From an uncultured Acidimicrobiales bacterium (GTDB lineage Bacteria; Actinomycetota; Acidimicrobiia; Acidimicrobiales; UBA10347): a stretch of DNA of 64,000 nt. Made by a program: the position numbers and the translations under genes. Positions 98 to 20,190 of the stretch are shown in pieces. The notes beneath the pieces are model-generated. The model had not been told where the DNA came from. It did no database searches and saw nothing but the letters and a program-made list of their open reading frames with translations. The stretch is taken from NCBI GenBank assembly GCA_963925805.1, contig CAWUSE010000023.1, positions 65,098 through 129,097 of the forward strand, written 5' to 3'. Position 1 is the first letter of the stretch. Each line of letters starts with the position of its first letter.

Positions 98-2420
98 TCC
101 ATCGCTCGTCCTGGAAGAACTTCGGCCGACAACCCGCCCGATAGATCTGGGTACGCCACGGTCGATCCACATCGTGGGGATCGGGGGAGCCGGGATGCGC
201 GCTGTGGCCCGCATCCTGCTGGCTATGGGTCACACCATCACTGGTTCAGATAGCGCTGGGTCTCGGCACCTGGATGAGCTAGTTGCGTTGGGCGCCACGA
301 CGTTCGTTGGTCATCACGGGTCACATGCAGCGAACGCAGACCTCGTGACTCGGTCGACCGCGGTGCCAGACTCAAACCCCGACATTGTTGGTGCTCTCCA
401 GCGAGGCACCCCGGTCTATTCGCGAGCCGAGATCCTCGCTGCAATCGTGGTGACTCGACCTGCCATCCTGGTCGCTGGCACTCATGGTAAAACCACGACA
501 TCTTCGATGCTTTCGGTGCTGCTTGATCATGCTGGTCTGCAACCATCGTTCATCATTGGATCCGATGTGGTTCATTTCGGTACCGGGGCACGGTGGGAAA
601 CAACAGAGCATTTTGTCGTTGAAGCCGACGAGAGCGATGGCACCTTCTTAACGCTGATGGGTGCCCACGCCATCGTGACATCATTGGACCCTGACCATCT
701 CGAGTTCTACGGGTCGGCCGAACGGCTCAGCGCTGCATTCAGCGGGTTTGTCGAAGGGATCGACGGCATCACGGCGGTGTGTATCGACGACAGCGATACA
801 CACGTGCTGTTGGGCTGCAGCGGGATTGTGACCTATGGGACCGACGACCGGTCTGACCTGTGTATCTCCAGGATCGACGTCACGGAGGACGACACCGAAT
901 TCGACGTGCGTTGGCAAGGCCAGCGACTCGGCCGTGTCTGCGTCGGATTGCCAGGCCATCACAACGCGCTAAATGCGGCGGGTGCCCTGACGATCGCACT
1001 TGGACTTGGTGTGCACTTCGACCGCGCTGTCGAAGGTCTCGCTCGTTTCAACGGCGTCGCACGTCGATTTGAACAGCGAGGAGACCACCTTGGTACCCGC
1101 CTGGTCGATGACTACGCGCACCTTCCGGCGGAGGTCGAGGCCGCGATCGCTGCGGCGAAGCATGGGCCGTGGAATCGTGTTCTGGCTGCCTATCAGCCGC
1201 ATCGTTATAGCCGGACTCAGGCCCTTGGCGCCACGTTTGCCACCTCGTTTCGTGGTGTTCACCATTTGGTGCTGACCGATATCTATCCGTCAGGTGAAGA
1301 ACCAAGAGCGGGCGTCACGGGGCGCATCGTGTATGACGCTGTGGTCGCTGCATGTCCAGAAATGTCTGTGAGCTGGCAGCCGACGTTGGATGATGTCGCC
1401 GGCCATCTGGCCGCCAAGTTGGGCCCAGGCGACCTGTGCCTGACGATGGGGGCTGGAGACCTGACAACAGTGCCAGACATGGTCGTGCAGCGACTCCGTG
1501 CGTCTACCCCAGGTTCTATGGCTTGGCTCTTCGATCTCGCACCGCAACTTATTGACACCATCGTGCGCCACCATGAACCAATCGGTATCCGAACGACGTA
1601 TCGCGTCGGTGGGGCGGCCCTGGCGCACGCTGTGGTCGCCACAATTTCTGATTTAGTGGTTCTCGTAAGCGCAGCAGTGTCGAATCGCGTGCCGATCATT
1701 ATGGTGGGCAACGGTTCGAACATGCTGGTTTCTGATAGCGGCTTCTGGGGGCTATCGATCTCTCTGGCTGGCGAGTTCGACGCGATTGCCATCGAGGCAG
1801 GCACAGCCACCCTCGGCGCTGCGGTGTCGCTACCGGCGGCGGCCCGGCGTTTGACCGCGAAGGGATTGACTGGATTCGAGTGGGCGGTTGGTGTGCCAGG
1901 CACAATCGGAGGTGCGGTGGCCATGAACGCTGGCGGTCATGGCTCTGACATGGCGGCGACCGTCATCAGCGCAGCCGTGCTGGACATGACGACTGGTGAA
2001 CAACGGGTATGGGCCGCTGATGAGTTGTCGTTCCGATATCGCAGCTCTGCTATTGGCAGCGAACAGATCGTTCTGGCTGTGACGATGAATGTGAATCCGG
2101 GCGAGTCATCAGATGGTGAGGCGCTGCTCAGCGAGATCGTACGTTGGCGACGTGAACATCAGCCAGGTGGACAGAACGCAGGCTCGGTCTTCACAAACCC
2201 TTCTGGAGAGAGCGCCGGGCGGTTGATTGAAGCGGCTGGAGGCAAGGGCCTCCGAGTGGGAACGGCGCAGGTCAGCGACAAGCACGCGAACTTCATTCAG
2301 ACTGATCCGAATGGTATGGCCGACGACGTTCTCGACCTGATGCGTCGGGTGCAGGCCCTGGTCTGGGAACATGCTGGAATTAGACTCGAACCCGAGACTC
2401 GCCTGGTCGGTTTCTCATGA
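87..2420 (+). CDS. murC: Fused UDP-N-acetylmuramate--L-alanine ligase (MurC, N-terminal ~470 aa) and UDP-N-acetylenolpyruvoylglucosamine reductase (MurB, C-terminal ~290 aa)
   Basis: N-terminal part has the Mur ligase motifs IHIVGIGGAGM and GTHGKTTTSSM. C-terminal part has MurB motifs: TTYRVGGAA, GNGSNMLVSD, FRYRSS, GSVFTNP, AGRLIE and KHANFIQ. It is a single uninterrupted 777-aa frame. Confidence 0.9.
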   Translation: MPVDPSLVLEELRPTTRPIDLGTPRSIHIVGIGGAGMRAVARILLAMGHTITGSDSAGSRHLDELVALGATTFVGHHGSHAANADLVTRSTAVPDSNPDIVGALQRGTPVYSRAEILAAIVVTRPAILVAGTHGKTTTSSMLSVLLDHAGLQPSFIIGSDVVHFGTGARWETTEHFVVEADESDGTFLTLMGAHAIVTSLDPDHLEFYGSAERLSAAFSGFVEGIDGITAVCIDDSDTHVLLGCSGIVTYGTDDRSDLCISRIDVTEDDTEFDVRWQGQRLGRVCVGLPGHHNALNAAGALTIALGLGVHFDRAVEGLARFNGVARRFEQRGDHLGTRLVDDYAHLPAEVEAAIAAAKHGPWNRVLAAYQPHRYSRTQALGATFATSFRGVHHLVLTDIYPSGEEPRAGVTGRIVYDAVVAACPEMSVSWQPTLDDVAGHLAAKLGPGDLCLTMGAGDLTTVPDMVVQRLRASTPGSMAWLFDLAPQLIDTIVRHHEPIGIRTTYRVGGAALAHAVVATISDLVVLVSAAVSNRVPIIMVGNGSNMLVSDSGFWGLSISLAGEFDAIAIEAGTATLGAAVSLPAAARRLTAKGLTGFEWAVGVPGTIGGAVAMNAGGHGSDMAATVISAAVLDMTTGEQRVWAADELSFRYRSSAIGSEQIVLAVTMNVNPGESSDGEALLSEIVRWRREHQPGGQNAGSVFTNPSGESAGRLIEAAGGKGLRVGTAQVSDKHANFIQTDPNGMADDVLDLMRRVQALVWEHAGIRLEPETRLVGFS

Positions 2421-3298
2421 CGACGCCGCACCCGAAGATCACCGAGCGTCGGGCCGAGGTCGAAGACCAAAGCCAACGTTCGCGCCAACACAAGCTGATC
2501 GCTCTTGCGGTGTTGTTCGTGGTCATGCTGCTTGCAGGTGCGTCGACACAAAGTGCGCTACTCGATGTCGACGAGATCCGAATTGTTGGAGCTGAGCGGA
2601 CGCCCGCCAACTACCTACGTGCGGCTGCTGGCGTGGAGCTTGGGACACCACTGCTCGGACTGGATACCGGCCAGATTGAAACTCGGCTGATGGCCTTGCC
2701 TGAGATCGAAACAGTTGTGGCCTCGTCGAGTTGGGGCGGCGTCGTGACCGTGGAGATAAACGAGCGTGTAGCCGTTGCACGTATTGAGTCGCCTGATGGA
2801 ACTGTCGTTGTTGCCGCCGATGGATTGGTTCTCAATGTCATCGACCGGACCGTCGAAACGACGGTCACCAACGTCGTGCAGAGCCAGCCAGGTCAAACAA
2901 CTGAGCCCGGTGAAACACCCGATGGTTCTGTCACCGAACTGGTGCCGTTGGGACCAGAGATCGCCGCCTTGCCTGAGATAGCTGGAGCTATGTTCCAGAC
3001 CGAGCGCGGTAAATCAATTCCCGATGTACTCGACGACGCCTTGACGGTGGCCTCTGTATTACCCGCAGACATAGCGTCGATCACGCTGCGAGTGGAGATC
3101 ACCGTCGATTCGTTGGTCCTGCGAACCGTCGGAGGTGGGAACATTTCTCTTGGCGATGCTCGTGACCTTCATGAAAAATTCGAGGCGGTCCGGGCATTCC
3201 TGGCTCAGGTTGACCTGAGCTGTCTCGAGACCCTTGACGTACGAGCGCCGTCTGTCCCGGTTATCCGCAGGGCCCTAGATTGTCGAGTGCTGGGTTAG
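2417..3298 (+). CDS. ftsQ: Cell division protein FtsQ (POTRA domain, single N-terminal TM helix)
   Basis: 4-nt start/stop overlap with murC-murB. TM segment LIALAVLFVVMLLAG is followed by a POTRA-like IRIVGAERT...ETRLMALPEIETV. It sits immediately upstream of ftsZ. Confidence 0.8.
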   Translation: MTTPHPKITERRAEVEDQSQRSRQHKLIALAVLFVVMLLAGASTQSALLDVDEIRIVGAERTPANYLRAAAGVELGTPLLGLDTGQIETRLMALPEIETVVASSSWGGVVTVEINERVAVARIESPDGTVVVAADGLVLNVIDRTVETTVTNVVQSQPGQTTEPGETPDGSVTELVPLGPEIAALPEIAGAMFQTERGKSIPDVLDDALTVASVLPADIASITLRVEITVDSLVLRTVGGGNISLGDARDLHEKFEAVRAFLAQVDLSCLETLDVRAPSVPVIRRALDCRVLG

Positions 3299-14566: not shown

Positions 14567-15082
14567 ATGAGTGACACAAGCGATGAAATAGCTAACGAGC
14601 CATTGGTTGAACAAGCCGAACTGGTTGAACAAGGTGGCGCTGACGAACCTGTAACCAGCGTGGGCGAGCAGATCGAACAGCCAGCAAAGGTCATGCGGGT
14701 GGGCGCAATGATGCGTCAGCTGCTTGAACAAGTGCGCCAGATCGAGCTCGACCAACCGAGCCGCGAACGATTGCGCGACATTTACGAGCAGTCGATCACC
14801 GAACTCAGTAGCGCATTGTCACCTGAGTTGCACGATGAACTCTTGCGCCTCAGTGGGCCATTCAGCGATGTCGGTACGCCCAGCGAAGCCGAGCTGGCTG
14901 TGGCTAAGGCCCAGCTAGTCGGGTGGCTGGAAGGGTTGGTTCAAGGCATCCAGGCAACGCTGTTTGCTCAACAGGTGGCAGCCCAACAACAGCTTGCCTC
15001 TATCCGTGGTGGCCTCCCGGCTGGGGCTCCGCCTCAACAGTCAGAACAGTCGTCGCCAGAACTCCCAGGCCAATACCTGTAA
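14567..15082 (+). CDS. bpa: Bacterial proteasome activator Bpa/PafE
   Basis: EQPAKVMRVGAMMRQLLEQVR, AQLVGWLEGLVQGIQATLFAQQ, and the terminal GQYL* (cca ggc caa tac ctg taa at 15065-15082) match the Bpa family as I remember the M. tuberculosis protein. Confidence 0.88.
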   Translation: MSDTSDEIANEPLVEQAELVEQGGADEPVTSVGEQIEQPAKVMRVGAMMRQLLEQVRQIELDQPSRERLRDIYEQSITELSSALSPELHDELLRLSGPFSDVGTPSEAELAVAKAQLVGWLEGLVQGIQATLFAQQVAAQQQLASIRGGLPAGAPPQQSEQSSPELPGQYL

Positions 15083-15470
15083 CCGGGAAGCGAGCCGGTG
15101 ATAGGGCGGGGCACAAGCGCGGTGATTTCCAGAACTGGTGTCGTTTCAGCAATGATTTGACACAGAGGACCACTTCCACCAAGTGAGTGTGTTCACCGTT
15201 TTGCTGGTCCTATGACATGAATATGGACGTGTGCCCCCGCCATCGTGATCAATGCAATGCCAGGGCTGAGGAGTCCTCGGCGATGATTCGATGGTCAGGT
15301 ACATCGAATTCGGCGGCTGAACTATTGCTGCCAGCCAGTGGCTAGAGACACGACCGAGGTATACGTCTCAAGCGGTGGCGGGTTGCCAGTTAGCTTGCAA
15401 GCATCGCGTCACACGCTGCCCATTGCTGGCGGAACCGAGCCACGAGCGCTGCGAACCACGCGTCGTTGGC

Positions 15471-15502
15471 AGCGCTCCGACGGGAGCGCTACAACGATTT
15501 TT
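15471..15502 (+). terminator. Terminator-like hairpin inside the bpa-dnaE gap
   Basis: AGCGCTCC (15471-78), loop GACG, GGAGCGCT (15483-90), then ACAACGATTTTT. The stem is a perfect 8 bp, and the T-run is offset by 6 nt. It lies about 105 nt downstream of the minus-strand collagen-like gene and about 390 nt downstream of bpa. Confidence 0.35.
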
Positions 15503-15596
15503 GCATCGCCGAGTCGGTTCGGTGGCCGACGTGTTGGAGAAAATCCGTGTCGGTATCTGAAACAGGTGGATAGCGAAACTTTTGTGTTCTCTGTTT

Positions 15597-16291
15597 TTAG
15601 TATGTCTGTCAGGTTGCTGCGACTCCGCCTTGACCACAGGAAATCTGAACGCTCACAGCACCAGTGCCGCCATCCATATGGACGCCGGTCGCCAAAGACC
15701 ACACCACGTCAATACGGTGAACGAAAACGTCGACGCTGTTACTTCCGGTGTTAAAGGAATTAGCCCCGATAGAACCAGAAATAGTGCTTCAGGTGCCGTC
15801 CGCTGCGCCAATAACAACGAACTCGCAAATCTGGTCGTCGCAGTACTGAATGATCTCGAGACCAACTACTGAATAGCCTTCCGTTGTGATGAGCTCGCCA
15901 ATAAATGTGTAGTCCATGCCGTTACCATCACCTGAAAATGAGCCATTGAGGGTGGCGCGTAATTCAGCGCACGCACAGGCACCGTTATTCATCGCTATGA
16001 ACCGGTCGGCACCACAGGTCAAATCGCTCAACGCCCCATCAGAACCAGCTGTTCCATCCACGCCAGCTGGTCATTTAGAGCCAATCACTCCTGTAGAGGC
16101 AGTTGGGCCTTGTTGACCTATAAACCCAACGCCTTCGGACCCAGCCGCTCCGTCCACGACAGCGGGTCCATCACGGCCATTGCATCCGTATGCACCTTTG
16201 GGCCTTGTGGCCCGGATGGCAAGTTGGCGATTTGTTGTTCTAATGCCGCGATTCGGGTTTCCAGTTCTGCAGCGTCTGGCTGCGCTGTCAA
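15597..16291 (-). pseudogene. Coiled-coil plus collagen-like (Gly-X-Y) plus Cys/Gly-rich C-terminal domain gene, interrupted by one -1 frame change and three in-frame TGA codons (pseudogene or recoded gene)
   Basis: TTG 16291 opens MTAQPDAAELETRIAALEQQIANLPSGPQGPK. The frame changes at CCCAAAG (16202-16196) to GAYGCNGRDGPA...GSK[TGA]PAGVDGTAGSDGALSDLTCGADRF...AADGT[TGA]STISGSIG...GGVAAT[TGA]QTY, ending at TAA 15599-15597. Only the middle part appears as a listed ORF (15789..16061). Confidence 0.6.
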
Positions 16292-16560
16292 CTCGACTCT
16301 GTCTTCTCGTTCCGCGTCAGGCAGAACATAACGATAACGATGTCGCGTTTCCCGCTAGCTTCACTTATGCGGCGGATGAATTCGTAACGGTCACGGTCCT
16401 TCACGGCCAGATTCTCGGAACCGACCGCATAGTTCATGATGTGAAGCCGGCCCTCGATCGGGTCTTGTCTCAGATTCCTTGTCATAGGCCGGACGTTAAA
16501 TTCGGGATACGACAAGGACCGCGCAGCTTGGGACGGGTGCGTCGTACATGTCTCAAGCAC
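16288..16560 (-). CDS. Hypothetical small protein (90 codons from GTG, 65 from the internal ATG). Its TGA overlaps the TTG of the collagen-like gene as TTGA.
   Basis: A listed ORF with no motif I recognise. The TTGA stop/start overlap at 16291-16288 suggests a two-gene unit. Composition is more AT-rich than the neighbours. Confidence 0.35.
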   Translation of the reverse strand: MLETCTTHPSQAARSLSYPEFNVRPMTRNLRQDPIEGRLHIMNYAVGSENLAVKDRDRYEFIRRISEASGKRDIVIVMFCLTRNEKTESS

Positions 16561-16653
16561 AGCGATGGCATCTAGAGCGCAACTGCGATAAGTTTATGGC
16601 TCCGGAATTACAGACGTGTAACTCTGGAGTTGACTAAGCGATGCAGAGGTCTC

Positions 16654-19600
16654 ATGGCTGGTTCATTCACACATCTTCATGTCCACACTGAGTTCTCGAT
16701 GCTCGATGGGGCATCGCGTGTCGGCGAGTTGGCAGCTGCAGCCGCAGCCGACGGTCAACCGGCTATGGCGATGACTGATCACGGCAATATGTACGGCGTG
16801 CTCGACTTCTATCAGGCATGTAAAGAGGTCGGGGTTAAGCCGATTATCGGCACTGAGGCCTATATGGCCCACGACCACCGAAGCGAACGACCTAAGCGCC
16901 GCGGTCGTCTCGACGACTCAGGTGGCGAGACTGACTCGGGCAAGTTGTATTACCACCTCTGCCTGTTGGCGGAGAACCAAAAAGGCTACAAGAATCTAAT
17001 TCAGCTATCGAGCCGGGCATACCTCGAGGGTTACTACTACAAACCCAGGATTGACTGGGAACTGCTCGACACCCACAGCGAAGGCGTAATCGCAACCACC
17101 GGCTGCCTGGGCGGACACGTTCTGCAAGAACTGCTCAATGGCAACGAAGATCAGGCCCGCAAAAAAGCCGGCAAGCTCCAAGATATTTTCGGTCGCGACA
17201 ACCTGTTCGTCGAACTCCAGGATCATGGCATCGCTGCGCAGCGCCAGACCAACCCGCAGCTCGTCGAGATCGCCAACTACTTGGGCGCGCCACTCCTAGC
17301 AACCAACGACACCCATTACACCCACAGCGAAGATCACCAGGCTCACGACGCTCTGCTATGTGTGCAGACCGCGTCGTTGATGAGCGACCCGGACCGATTC
17401 AGGTTCGAGGGCAACGACCACTACGTCAAGTCTTCGGCTGAGATGCGAGACCTGTTCCGCGAGGTTCCGAGCGCGTGCGACAACACATTGTGGATTGCTG
17501 AACGCTGCAATGTTGAGATCGAGTTGGGCGAACCGAAGCTCCCCAAATTTCCGCTACCGGAAGGCTTCGAGACCGACTATCAGTATCTCGAGCACCTGAC
17601 CTTTGAGGGCGCTCACAAACGTTGGGGAGAAGTCCTAAACGATGCGACCGTTGAGCGGCTGGCCTATGAGCTCAAAGTCATCAACGACATGGGTTTCTCG
17701 TCCTACTTCCTGATCACTGGCGACTTGATCAACCACGCACGCAAGCAGAACATCCGTGTGGGTCCAGGTCGTGGCTCTGCTGCCGGTTGTGCCGTGTCCT
17801 ATTGCCTGCGCATCACCGACCTAGACCCGATCAAGTACGACTTGTTGTTCGAGCGATTCTTGAACCCGGGACGCCGATCGATGCCCGATATCGATATGGA
17901 CTTCGACTCGCGATACCGCGACGAAATGATCCGCTATATGGCGGACCAGTACGGTCGAGAACACGTCGCCCAGATCGTGACCTTCTCAACCATCAAAGCG
18001 CGAGCTGCGGTGCGAGATGCTGCCCGTGTGCTCGGCCATCCGTACCTCGTTGGCGACCGCATCGCCAAGCTCATGCCGCCGCTGGTCATGGGGCGCGACA
18101 CACCGCTCTACGCTTGCCTCGAGAAGCATCCCAAGTACGAAGATGGCTACGGTATGGCCAAGGATCTGCGGGAACTTTACGCAGCGGACCCCGATGCCCG
18201 CGAGGTTGTCGACGTTGCACTCGGCCTCGAAGGTCTTCGTCGTGGTGACGGTATTCACGCGGCCGCTGTAGTAGTTACTGATGAACCGCTGACCGAATAC
18301 CTGCCGATTCAGCGCAAACCAGAGAGCGGCCAAGACCCGGCCGACGCGCCGGTGGTCACGCAGTACGAAATGGGCCCGGTAGAAGACCTCGGCCTGTTAA
18401 AGCTCGACTTCCTCGGCCTGCGGAACCTCGACGTCATCAGCGATGCGCTAGAAATCATCAAGCGGACCCAAGGCATCACCGTCGATATCGACAATGTCGA
18501 TCTGACAGATCAGCCGACCTATGAGCTGCTGCAGCGGGGCGACACGATTGGCGTGTTCCAGCTTGAGAGCTCACCAATGCGAGCCCTCATCCGTTCGCTC
18601 GCGCCGGATTGCTTCGACGACGTCGCTGCGCTGGTAGCGCTGTATCGCCCTGGCCCAATGGCCATGAATATGCACAACGATTACGCCGATCGCAAAAATG
18701 GGCGACAGGCGATCGAGTTGTTACATGACGATGCCGCCGAGATGTTGAGCGGCACGTACGGGCTCATGATCTACCAAGAGTCCATGATGCGTATCGCTCA
18801 GAAGTTTGCGGGTTACTCGCTTGAAGAAGCGGACAACTTGCGTAAGGCTTGCGGTAAGAAAATTCGCGAGGTCATGGCCAAAGAAAAAGTCGGCTTCATC
18901 GAAGGCTGCGTGAACACCGGTTACGGAGTCGAAGTCGGTGAGAAGTGGTGGGAGCAGATCGAGCCATTTGCCGACTATGCCTTTAACAAGAGCCATAGCT
19001 ACGGCTACGGCTACGTTGCATTTCAGATCGCCTATCTCAAGGCGAACTTCCCGGTCGAGTACATGGCTTCGTTGCTCACAAGTGTGAAGGGCAACCTAGA
19101 CAAGGCCGCTGGTTACTTGCACGAATGTCGCATCATGGGCGTTGATGTGCTTGTGCCCGATGTGAACCTGGCTCAAAGCGACTTCAGCGCAGCCGGGCGC
19201 GATGAGCATGGATTGCCGAATTCGATTGTCTTTGGCCTGTCGGCAGTCCGCAACGTTGGCGAGGGCCTAGTGTCGCTGCTCGTCGAAGAGCGTGACGCAA
19301 ACGGGCCATTCGACGACTTCACTGAATTTTGCGAACGAGTCGATCCGTCGGTACTCAACAAGCGCACTATCGAAGCGCTGATCAAGGCTGGTGGCTTTGA
19401 TGCGATGGAGTATGGCCGGAAAGGAATGCTGCAGGTCTTTGAGCAGATCATTGATCTCACGCTCAGCCGCCGTCGTGAACGTGACATGGGTATTCAAACG
19501 CTCTTTGGTGAACTTAGCGAGGAAGCGACCTTTGACGAGCGCCCAAAGATCCCTGAGATGGAGTTCGAAAAGACCGAGAAGCTGCGCTTCGAGAAGGAAA

Positions 19601-20190
19601 TGCTTGGGCTGTACATCAGCGATCATCCTCTGGCAGGTATCGAGGACGCCTTGCGCCGCAAGAGCGACTGCACGGTGCCGGAGCTCAAGGAGTTGGGCGA
19701 CGGTGAGTTCCGGGCTGTCGGCGGGGTGGTTACGAACCTGCAGCGAAAGTACACCCGGAAACAGGACCTCATGGCGGTGTTCGAGCTCGAAGACCTCGAA
19801 GGCTCAATTGAGGTGATGGTGTTCCCGCGTTCCATGCTCAAGTTTGGGCACCTGCTTCGCGATGATGCCGTGGTCGTGGTCAAGGGCAGGCTCAAAGTCA
19901 ACGATGACGAACGCCAGATGATCTGCAACGAGGTCGAAATTTTTGAGACGCGCCAACGCAACGGCGCAGTGACCATCAAGCTGGGAGCGTCTGCGCTGGA
20001 GCAACCCAAGCTCGACGCGCTCAAAGAAGTGATCCTTCACCATCCCGGCGACTCCGATGTGCTGATCGAGTTCGAGGATCTGGGTCAGAAGAAAACCGTT
20101 CGCTTATCCGAGAAATATGGCGTCGACCCAGCGTCGCCACTCATGGGCGAGCTACGCGTACTTCTTGGCGGCGGCGCTTTCACGCTCTAA
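16654..20190 (+). CDS. dnaE: DNA polymerase III alpha subunit
   Basis: PHP domain start MAGSFTHLHVHTEFSMLDG, the PDIDMDF catalytic motif, and a C-terminal OB fold. The start is set at ATG 16654, inside the listed TTG-initiated ORF. Confidence 0.96.
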   Translation: MAGSFTHLHVHTEFSMLDGASRVGELAAAAAADGQPAMAMTDHGNMYGVLDFYQACKEVGVKPIIGTEAYMAHDHRSERPKRRGRLDDSGGETDSGKLYYHLCLLAENQKGYKNLIQLSSRAYLEGYYYKPRIDWELLDTHSEGVIATTGCLGGHVLQELLNGNEDQARKKAGKLQDIFGRDNLFVELQDHGIAAQRQTNPQLVEIANYLGAPLLATNDTHYTHSEDHQAHDALLCVQTASLMSDPDRFRFEGNDHYVKSSAEMRDLFREVPSACDNTLWIAERCNVEIELGEPKLPKFPLPEGFETDYQYLEHLTFEGAHKRWGEVLNDATVERLAYELKVINDMGFSSYFLITGDLINHARKQNIRVGPGRGSAAGCAVSYCLRITDLDPIKYDLLFERFLNPGRRSMPDIDMDFDSRYRDEMIRYMADQYGREHVAQIVTFSTIKARAAVRDAARVLGHPYLVGDRIAKLMPPLVMGRDTPLYACLEKHPKYEDGYGMAKDLRELYAADPDAREVVDVALGLEGLRRGDGIHAAAVVVTDEPLTEYLPIQRKPESGQDPADAPVVTQYEMGPVEDLGLLKLDFLGLRNLDVISDALEIIKRTQGITVDIDNVDLTDQPTYELLQRGDTIGVFQLESSPMRALIRSLAPDCFDDVAALVALYRPGPMAMNMHNDYADRKNGRQAIELLHDDAAEMLSGTYGLMIYQESMMRIAQKFAGYSLEEADNLRKACGKKIREVMAKEKVGFIEGCVNTGYGVEVGEKWWEQIEPFADYAFNKSHSYGYGYVAFQIAYLKANFPVEYMASLLTSVKGNLDKAAGYLHECRIMGVDVLVPDVNLAQSDFSAAGRDEHGLPNSIVFGLSAVRNVGEGLVSLLVEERDANGPFDDFTEFCERVDPSVLNKRTIEALIKAGGFDAMEYGRKGMLQVFEQIIDLTLSRRRERDMGIQTLFGELSEEATFDERPKIPEMEFEKTEKLRFEKEMLGLYISDHPLAGIEDALRRKSDCTVPELKELGDGEFRAVGGVVTNLQRKYTRKQDLMAVFELEDLEGSIEVMVFPRSMLKFGHLLRDDAVVVVKGRLKVNDDERQMICNEVEIFETRQRNGAVTIKLGASALEQPKLDALKEVILHHPGDSDVLIEFEDLGQKKTVRLSEKYGVDPASPLMGELRVLLGGGAFTL

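Follow-up and report, generated by a model that had tools for sequence, protein, structure and literature searches.

Is a collagen-like gene that cannot be read in one frame nevertheless decoded, or has it simply decayed? The question arises at a locus in the window analysed here, a stretch of 64,000 nucleotides from a marine Acidimicrobiales genome, in which the minus strand between two core chromosomal genes, bpa (Bacterial Proteasome Activator) and dnaE, gives a continuous protein only if a −1 shift occurs at a slippery heptamer and in-frame TGA codons are passed. No phage genes lie near it. The original prediction preferred a young pseudogene, and listed a homopolymer sequencing error and genuine recoding, or import from a donor with genetic code 25, as alternatives. 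From the evidence described below, it is very probable that 16291-15609 is a fixed, non-functional pseudogene of a collagen-like surface lipoprotein that involves no special decoding.

When the minus strand of 15300-16600 was translated in all three frames, the TTG, the heptamer, the TAG, the TGAs, the TAA and the downstream stem were all found exactly where they had been described (Table 1; the TGAs are numbered in the reading direction). Read in the zero frame, C_CCA_AAG has the X_XXY_YYZ form, and a −1 slip on it restores the phase of the Gly-X-Y triplets. Frame B, the −1 frame, continues as GAYGCNGRDGPA and reaches the TAA without encountering a TAA or TAG. A TAA/TAG-free run of about 200 codons is reached by 0.3% of mononucleotide shuffles, and its length is explained by homology, since frame B is the ancestral coding frame. 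The collagen-like character of the conceptual product is imperfect, with the Gly-X-Y register broken twice (GPA/VVD and GVG/FIGQQ/GPT) and a Pfam Collagen (PF01391) score of 23.1 bits, below the cut-off of 27.2.

Table 1. Coordinates of the collagen-like locus, its parts and its neighbours in the window.
Feature	Position	Strand	Remark
bpa (Bacterial Proteasome Activator)	14567-15082	plus	PF10759, E = 1e-54
dnaE	16630-20190	plus	
Collagen-like gene, very probably a pseudogene	16291-15609	minus	between bpa and dnaE, marine Acidimicrobiales genome
TTG start, opens MTAQPDAAELETRIAALEQQIANLPSGPQGPK (frame A)	16291-16289	minus	
TAG ending frame A	16120-16118	minus	
5' remnant, frame A: predicted coiled coil AAELETRIAALEQQIANLP and first Gly-X-Y triplets (GPQ GPK)	16196..16291	minus	aligns with residues 39-64 of P0001 and P0002
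Frame-change site, CCCAAAG then GTG	16196..16202	minus	register C_CCA_AAG of the TTG frame
Gene body, frame B: remaining collagen-like region and Cys-rich C-terminal domain	15612..16196	minus	
TGA1, apparent nonsense codon at a Gly-X-Y glycine	16071..16073	minus	GGA in intact homologs
TGA2, apparent nonsense codon inside the VGVADH[TS]xC motif	15789..15791	minus	window reads IGAADGT, stop, S
TGA3, native stop of the gene	15609..15611	minus	homologs stop at the same codon
3'UTR homologous to that of intact members, containing TAA 15599-15597	15532..15608	minus	nucleotide alignment beyond the stop
Hairpin GGACCCGC...GGGTCC	16137..16169	minus	begins 26 nt past the heptamer
Spurious 90-aa ORF, its TGA overlapping the TTG (TTGA)	16288..16560	minus	no family match

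A homology search with the repaired protein had been proposed as a check, and it was productive. Using the frame-corrected product as the query, we retrieved two intact single-frame relatives, P0001 (283 aa, 46% identity) and P0002 (291 aa, 44% identity), whose matches extend over 96% of the query and cover the frame change as well as both internal TGAs. Further members of the family were collected by profile search, exhaustive HMMER search and a metagenome scan, and clustering at 50% leaves 8 representatives. The intact relatives come from marine metagenomes and are lipoproteins of 264-291 aa; P0001, P0002, the L002 paralog, L005, L006, L007 and P0019 all run in an uninterrupted single frame across the lesion sites. 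Each full-length member starts with a signal peptide containing a lipobox, MKTFVKFRFVFCMALMVLAVGGC (FIAC in P0019), which is followed by a short coiled coil, AAELEARIGVLEQQLASLP, by the Gly-X-Y repeats, and by a Cys-rich C-terminal domain of about 140 aa that ends in ...VSCGQGVIPAT directly before the stop. The coiled coil of the ancestral lipoprotein was probably a short, trimerising one. PF01391 matches are on record for P0001, P0002 and P0006. The AlphaFold model of the C-terminal domain is beta-rich with a pLDDT of 82, and comparison of this model with the PDB (best E 0.41) and with BFVD (best E 0.013, TM 0.41) gave no significant match.

Intact copies were located at L001:2145-2996, L002:345-1220 and 2188-3078, L005:615-1445 and L006:~200-1093. 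Their 5' ends, comprising the upstream region, the signal peptide and the coiled coil, are almost identical to one another, as are their 3' ends and 3'UTRs, and the core of the C-terminal domain is hypervariable. The family also occurs as tandem paralogs (L002) and in unrelated genomic contexts. Conserved ends, a hypervariable core and tandem paralogs together make up the layout of a variable family of surface proteins. The intact homologs stand at the distance of paralogs from the window copy (about 45-55% identity) and are found in other genomic contexts, and the C-terminal domain of the window copy is 39-54% identical to those of 15 family members. The contexts of P0006 and P0012 show no synteny with bpa-dnaE, no syntenic intact ortholog was found at bpa-dnaE of sister species (isolate and representative genomes included), and patterns for the coiled coil and the C-terminal domain detected no relatives on GTDB representative genome contigs. 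A literature search on collagen-like lipoproteins of marine Actinobacteria returned nothing pertinent.

Two side observations on this family are recorded here. P0006 lies on an 11,990-nt contig (L024:1950-2960), where its collagen-like region and C-terminal domain are spread over several frame changes; either long-read indel error or decay of a second, independent member would account for these. Antisense ORFs of the PSAPSTPSAP... type are present opposite the Gly-X-Y repeats at L001:2042-2680, L002:1887-2798 and L006:100-813 (all minus strand); these were rejected as genes, being an expected artefact of GC-rich collagen-like repeats.

With the intact homologs in hand, each irregularity of the window copy can be judged individually. 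The original count of three in-frame TGAs holds for two internal ones; the third is the gene's own stop. At the TGA3 codon the homologs have TGA (L001, L005) or TAA (L002, L006, L007), all 15 family proteins terminate there apart from one short extension, and nucleotide homology runs about 75 nt further, to about 15532, so that the TAA previously taken as the end of the gene falls within the 3'UTR. Since homologs carry TGA at this very position, the gene lineage uses TGA as a terminator. At TGA1 every intact copy retrieved in L001, L002, L005, L006 and L007 has GGA (Gly), just as the preferred reading of the original prediction, a 1-nt deletion plus GGA>TGA-type nonsense changes, would have it, and TGA1 reads as a single-base G>T nonsense change. 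TGA2 interrupts the VGVADH[TS]xC motif, in which V78, H81 and C84 are shared by the 15 other members without exception and are changed in the window copy alone; the residue aligned to TGA2 itself is Val, Ala, Ile, Ser or Leu in the homologs. At the frame change the homologs read GAD GAD GAD in a single frame, with the slippery heptamer absent. The simplest explanation of the frame change is that an ancestral ...CCA AAG GGT... lost one G; this ancestral sequence, like that at TGA2, is one that we infer. On that history the X_XXY_YYZ pattern is a by-product of the codons for Gly-Pro-Lys-Gly.

The 5' end of the gene is affected as well. Signal peptide and lipobox are both missing from the window copy, frame A offers no start codon between the preceding stop and the TTG, and the DNA upstream of the pseudogene gives no convincing alignment with the signal-peptide region of the homologs. 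Gene callers conflict over this upstream DNA, proposing a 49-aa or 90-aa ORF on the minus strand or a 110-aa or 131-aa ORF on the plus strand (16180-16575); the 90-aa ORF at 16288-16560 has no Pfam or PHROG match, and three of its four polymorphisms fall on codon positions 1-2. The interval that separates the pseudogene from dnaE seems to be non-coding and to occupy the place of the lost 5' end. A scan for promoters and terminators gave no informative result.

Are these lesions real, and how widely are they distributed? Exact-protein look-ups and a metagenome scan gave 14 independently assembled contigs over the locus (L003, L004, L008, L009, L011 and L015-L023), which are records of ENA, JGI, NCBI and Logan and differ in sample and assembler. 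All 14 carry the same three TGAs in the same frame structure over 16291-15609, with no indels. In addition, an ORF of 90 aa that runs from just past TGA1 to TGA2 is present in 52 blocks of the collection, and all 15 listed variants of it, together on more than 170 contigs, are terminated by TGA2. Since the lesions are common to alleles that differ by 2.5% and are fixed across the species, the inactivation predates the divergence of the sampled strains. Thus, the "young pseudogene" of the original prediction stands as a pseudogene, but not as a young one.

The contig L003 (FLLY01000124.1, 1-3285) has a peculiarity of its own. Its identity to the window is 95-100% over the first ~16 dnaE codons (from about 16703) and through the pseudogene, whereas the rest of its dnaE is only about 72% identical and has a GC content of 64% versus 57%. 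Transfer of the pseudogene between species as a cassette, as the 98% identity beside a ~72% dnaE might imply, was considered and rejected: L009 shares this divergent allele, and its adjoining dnaE differs by only 1.6%, the L003 junction falls in the conserved HVHTEFS motif of dnaE precisely where the GC content jumps from 57% to 64%, and 12 nt separate it from the end of the L004 contig. In all likelihood L003 is a metagenome chimera and not a case of horizontal transfer. A separate strain difference was noted in bpa, whose product is 140, 171, 183, 189 or 195 aa long as called in different strains; near its 5' end (window 14594-14633) the alignments split or have gaps of 36-54 nt, which suggests a repeat-length polymorphism behind these differences.

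The polymorphisms allow selection on the locus to be assessed. Over the four haplotypes compared there are 23 variable sites, distributed almost evenly over the codon positions (6/8/9). The conceptual gene has a nonsynonymous to synonymous ratio of 14:9, which departs from the 2:21 of the flanking genes (Fisher p = 4e-4) and is compatible with the neutral expectation of 3:1 (p = 0.15). When the window is compared with L009 alone, 21 synonymous changes stand against 2 nonsynonymous ones in the flanking genes (dnaE pS 0.061, pN 0.0025), and 8 against 9 in the conceptual gene (pS 0.048, pN 0.018). Nine nonsynonymous changes out of 17 are borderline below neutrality (p = 0.048), and the corresponding pN/pS of 0.37 could come from residual constraint, from transition bias, or from a divergence older than the inactivation. 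The variants include a Gly>Val change at a Gly-X-Y glycine and cysteines both gained and lost, and database variants of the ORF between TGA1 and TGA2 add at least 10 further amino-acid polymorphisms in its 90 codons. The variable sites are unevenly placed: codons 3-137 (16285-15881) contain 21 of the 23, and just 2 are in the final 90 codons; the 362 nt upstream of the pseudogene are also nearly invariant. This unevenness is possibly a recombination mosaic between strains. Constraint on the locus is relaxed relative to the neighbouring genes, and the sequence has drifted near-neutrally since its inactivation.

A silent role is the alternative that survives best, although it is itself very unlikely. 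The locus might be a promoterless, 5'-truncated donor for gene conversion, similar to pilS or vls, or a contingency locus switched on and off by slipped-strand indels. The family layout described above, with nearly identical ends, a hypervariable C-terminal core and tandem paralogs, is indeed what one would expect of such a variable surface-protein system. A donor, however, needs a recipient, and among 5.8 billion clusters, examined by database-wide and exhaustive HMMER searches, no protein beyond the locus's own fragments is more than about 55% identical to it. Since no near-identical partner is found even though the species is well represented by many assemblies, no recipient locus is visible. 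As for a switch, the runs at the shift are no longer than 3 nt, and neither a phase-variable "on" form nor a length variant occurs in any of the 15 sequences (the window and the 14 contigs). It is similarly improbable that the decayed copy is retained as an archival recombination cassette, or as a leaky source of a trans-frame read-through product.

Genuine recoding would require a −1 frameshift at C_CCA_AAG together with read-through or reassignment of two TGAs (as Gly, Trp or Sec) to give a full-length protein. That the heptamer stands in the right register, that a −1 slip keeps the Gly-X-Y phase, and that the A_AAG part of such heptamers is very shift-prone in E. coli (PMC4066793) are all in its favour, as are the conservation of the lesions in all sampled strains and a pN/pS of less than 1 in the one allele pair. 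Heptamers of this form are nevertheless not rare in the window, where its ordinary genes contain 45 in frame per 16,537 codons (2.7 per 1000), with CCCAAAG twice among them. Frameshift stimulators generally begin 5-8 nt downstream of the slippery site (PMC4066793), and no structure was found at that distance; the sole hairpin starts 26 nt away, beyond the classical range, as the original prediction had pointed out. The fold of 16210-16100 is not significant (z-score −1.03, with 30 of 200 shuffles folding as well), and the GGACCCGC...GGGTCC hairpin is not credible as a frameshift stimulator. The folds after TGA1 and TGA2 are likewise non-significant (z = −0.32 and −1.63), and the stem at TGA1 is broken by a CCA>ACA polymorphism in L003 and L004. 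Rfam searches at gathering and E-value thresholds, including a permissive scan of 15000-16800, gave nothing relevant, the only match over the window being a tRNA.

Decoding of the TGAs as sense codons fares no better. Selenocysteine was rejected, since TGA1 occupies a glycine position, has no credible SECIS, and its hairpin is disrupted by polymorphism. Reassignment of TGA, as in codes 4 or 25, was rejected because TGA1 aligns with Gly, TGA2 with any of five other residues, and TGA3 with a stop. The claim that the host uses TGA as a stop is borne out: among the window's 38 long ORFs the terminator is TGA in 19, TAG in 12 and TAA in 7, making TGA the commonest stop of this host, in addition to its being the family's own stop at this locus. 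A tRNA scan of the 64-kb window found one tRNA, tRNA-Leu(CAA), and none with the anticodon UCA. The intact homologs all do without heptamer and frame change, and the product of recoding would lack the signal peptide and lipobox present in every full-length member, and would be without the invariant His and Cys. Its yield would presumably be negligible, since three events of low efficiency have to follow one another. The polymorphisms are flat over the codon positions, and the substitutions look neutral. Recoding is therefore extremely improbable, and a code-25 donor falls with it.

The weakest alternative, in which the organism has an intact gene and the indel and the TGAs are sequencing or assembly errors, can be given next to no probability, for although the shift falls among short runs (CCC AAA GG), the kind of sequence most prone to indel errors, and the homolog contig L024 has frame changes of the long-read-assembly type, the 14 contigs agree in frame structure and in all three TGAs without an indel, divergent alleles included.

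Programmed −1 sites, such as dnaX (A_AAA_AAG), IS3/IS911 and the phage tail chaperone G/GT (G_GGA_AAG), resemble the present one in having X_XXA_AAG in register and a −1 frame that continues the protein. They differ from the window site, which has no stimulator at 5-8 nt, homologs without the site, no apparent two-product logic and two nonsense codons downstream, so that the resemblance is confined to seven bases. Ordinary bacterial pseudogenes, on the other hand, show the same multiple lesions, loss of invariant residues, near-neutral substitutions and intact relatives elsewhere; there is no difference of substance, the window copy being simply fixed, and in a good state of preservation, throughout a widespread marine species. 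The intact relatives share their general plan with Scl1/Scl2 of Streptococcus and BclA of Bacillus anthracis, in that an N-terminal signal for export or anchoring is combined with a trimerisation element, a Gly-X-Y stalk and a globular domain, but they are anchored through a lipobox lipoprotein signal instead of LPXTG or exosporium attachment, and no C1q/TNF-like fold like that of BclA could be demonstrated for their C-terminal domain, given that no significant PDB or BFVD match was obtained. Profiles of phage collagen-like tail fibres, such as phrog_1806 and phrog_5073, match weakly (E 3e-9 to 1e-6), and only over the coiled coil and Gly-X-Y repeats; these matches are limited to the low-complexity repeat, whereas the homologs of the window copy are cellular lipoproteins.

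For the pseudogene, then, the following history may be proposed. The ancestor would have been a surface lipoprotein whose lipobox signal peptide was followed by a short coiled coil that formed trimers, by a collagen-like Gly-X-Y stalk and by a C-terminal domain rich in cysteine and in beta structure. Its 5' end, encoding the signal peptide and lipobox, was probably lost or replaced; a 1-nt deletion at CCA AAG/G would have shifted the frame, GGA at a collagen glycine would have become TGA, and a second TGA would have arisen within VGVADHxxC, where the conserved Val, His and Cys were also substituted. These lesions, at least four in number, would have arisen before the sampled strains diverged and become fixed, after which the sequence presumably drifted nearly neutrally. 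We also infer that the pseudogene is not expressed.

Taken together, an apparent case of stacked recoding, in which a slippery heptamer is combined with in-frame TGAs, is a negative result: it resolves into a plain pseudogene, and one of its TGAs is a real stop. Recoding screens should therefore weigh their candidates first against intact homologs and population data. As for the family itself, the intact relatives, whose C-terminal domain has no recognisable relative of solved structure, mark out a small and uncharacterised group of collagen-like lipoproteins that occurs in marine Acidimicrobiales as well as in other Actinomycetota.
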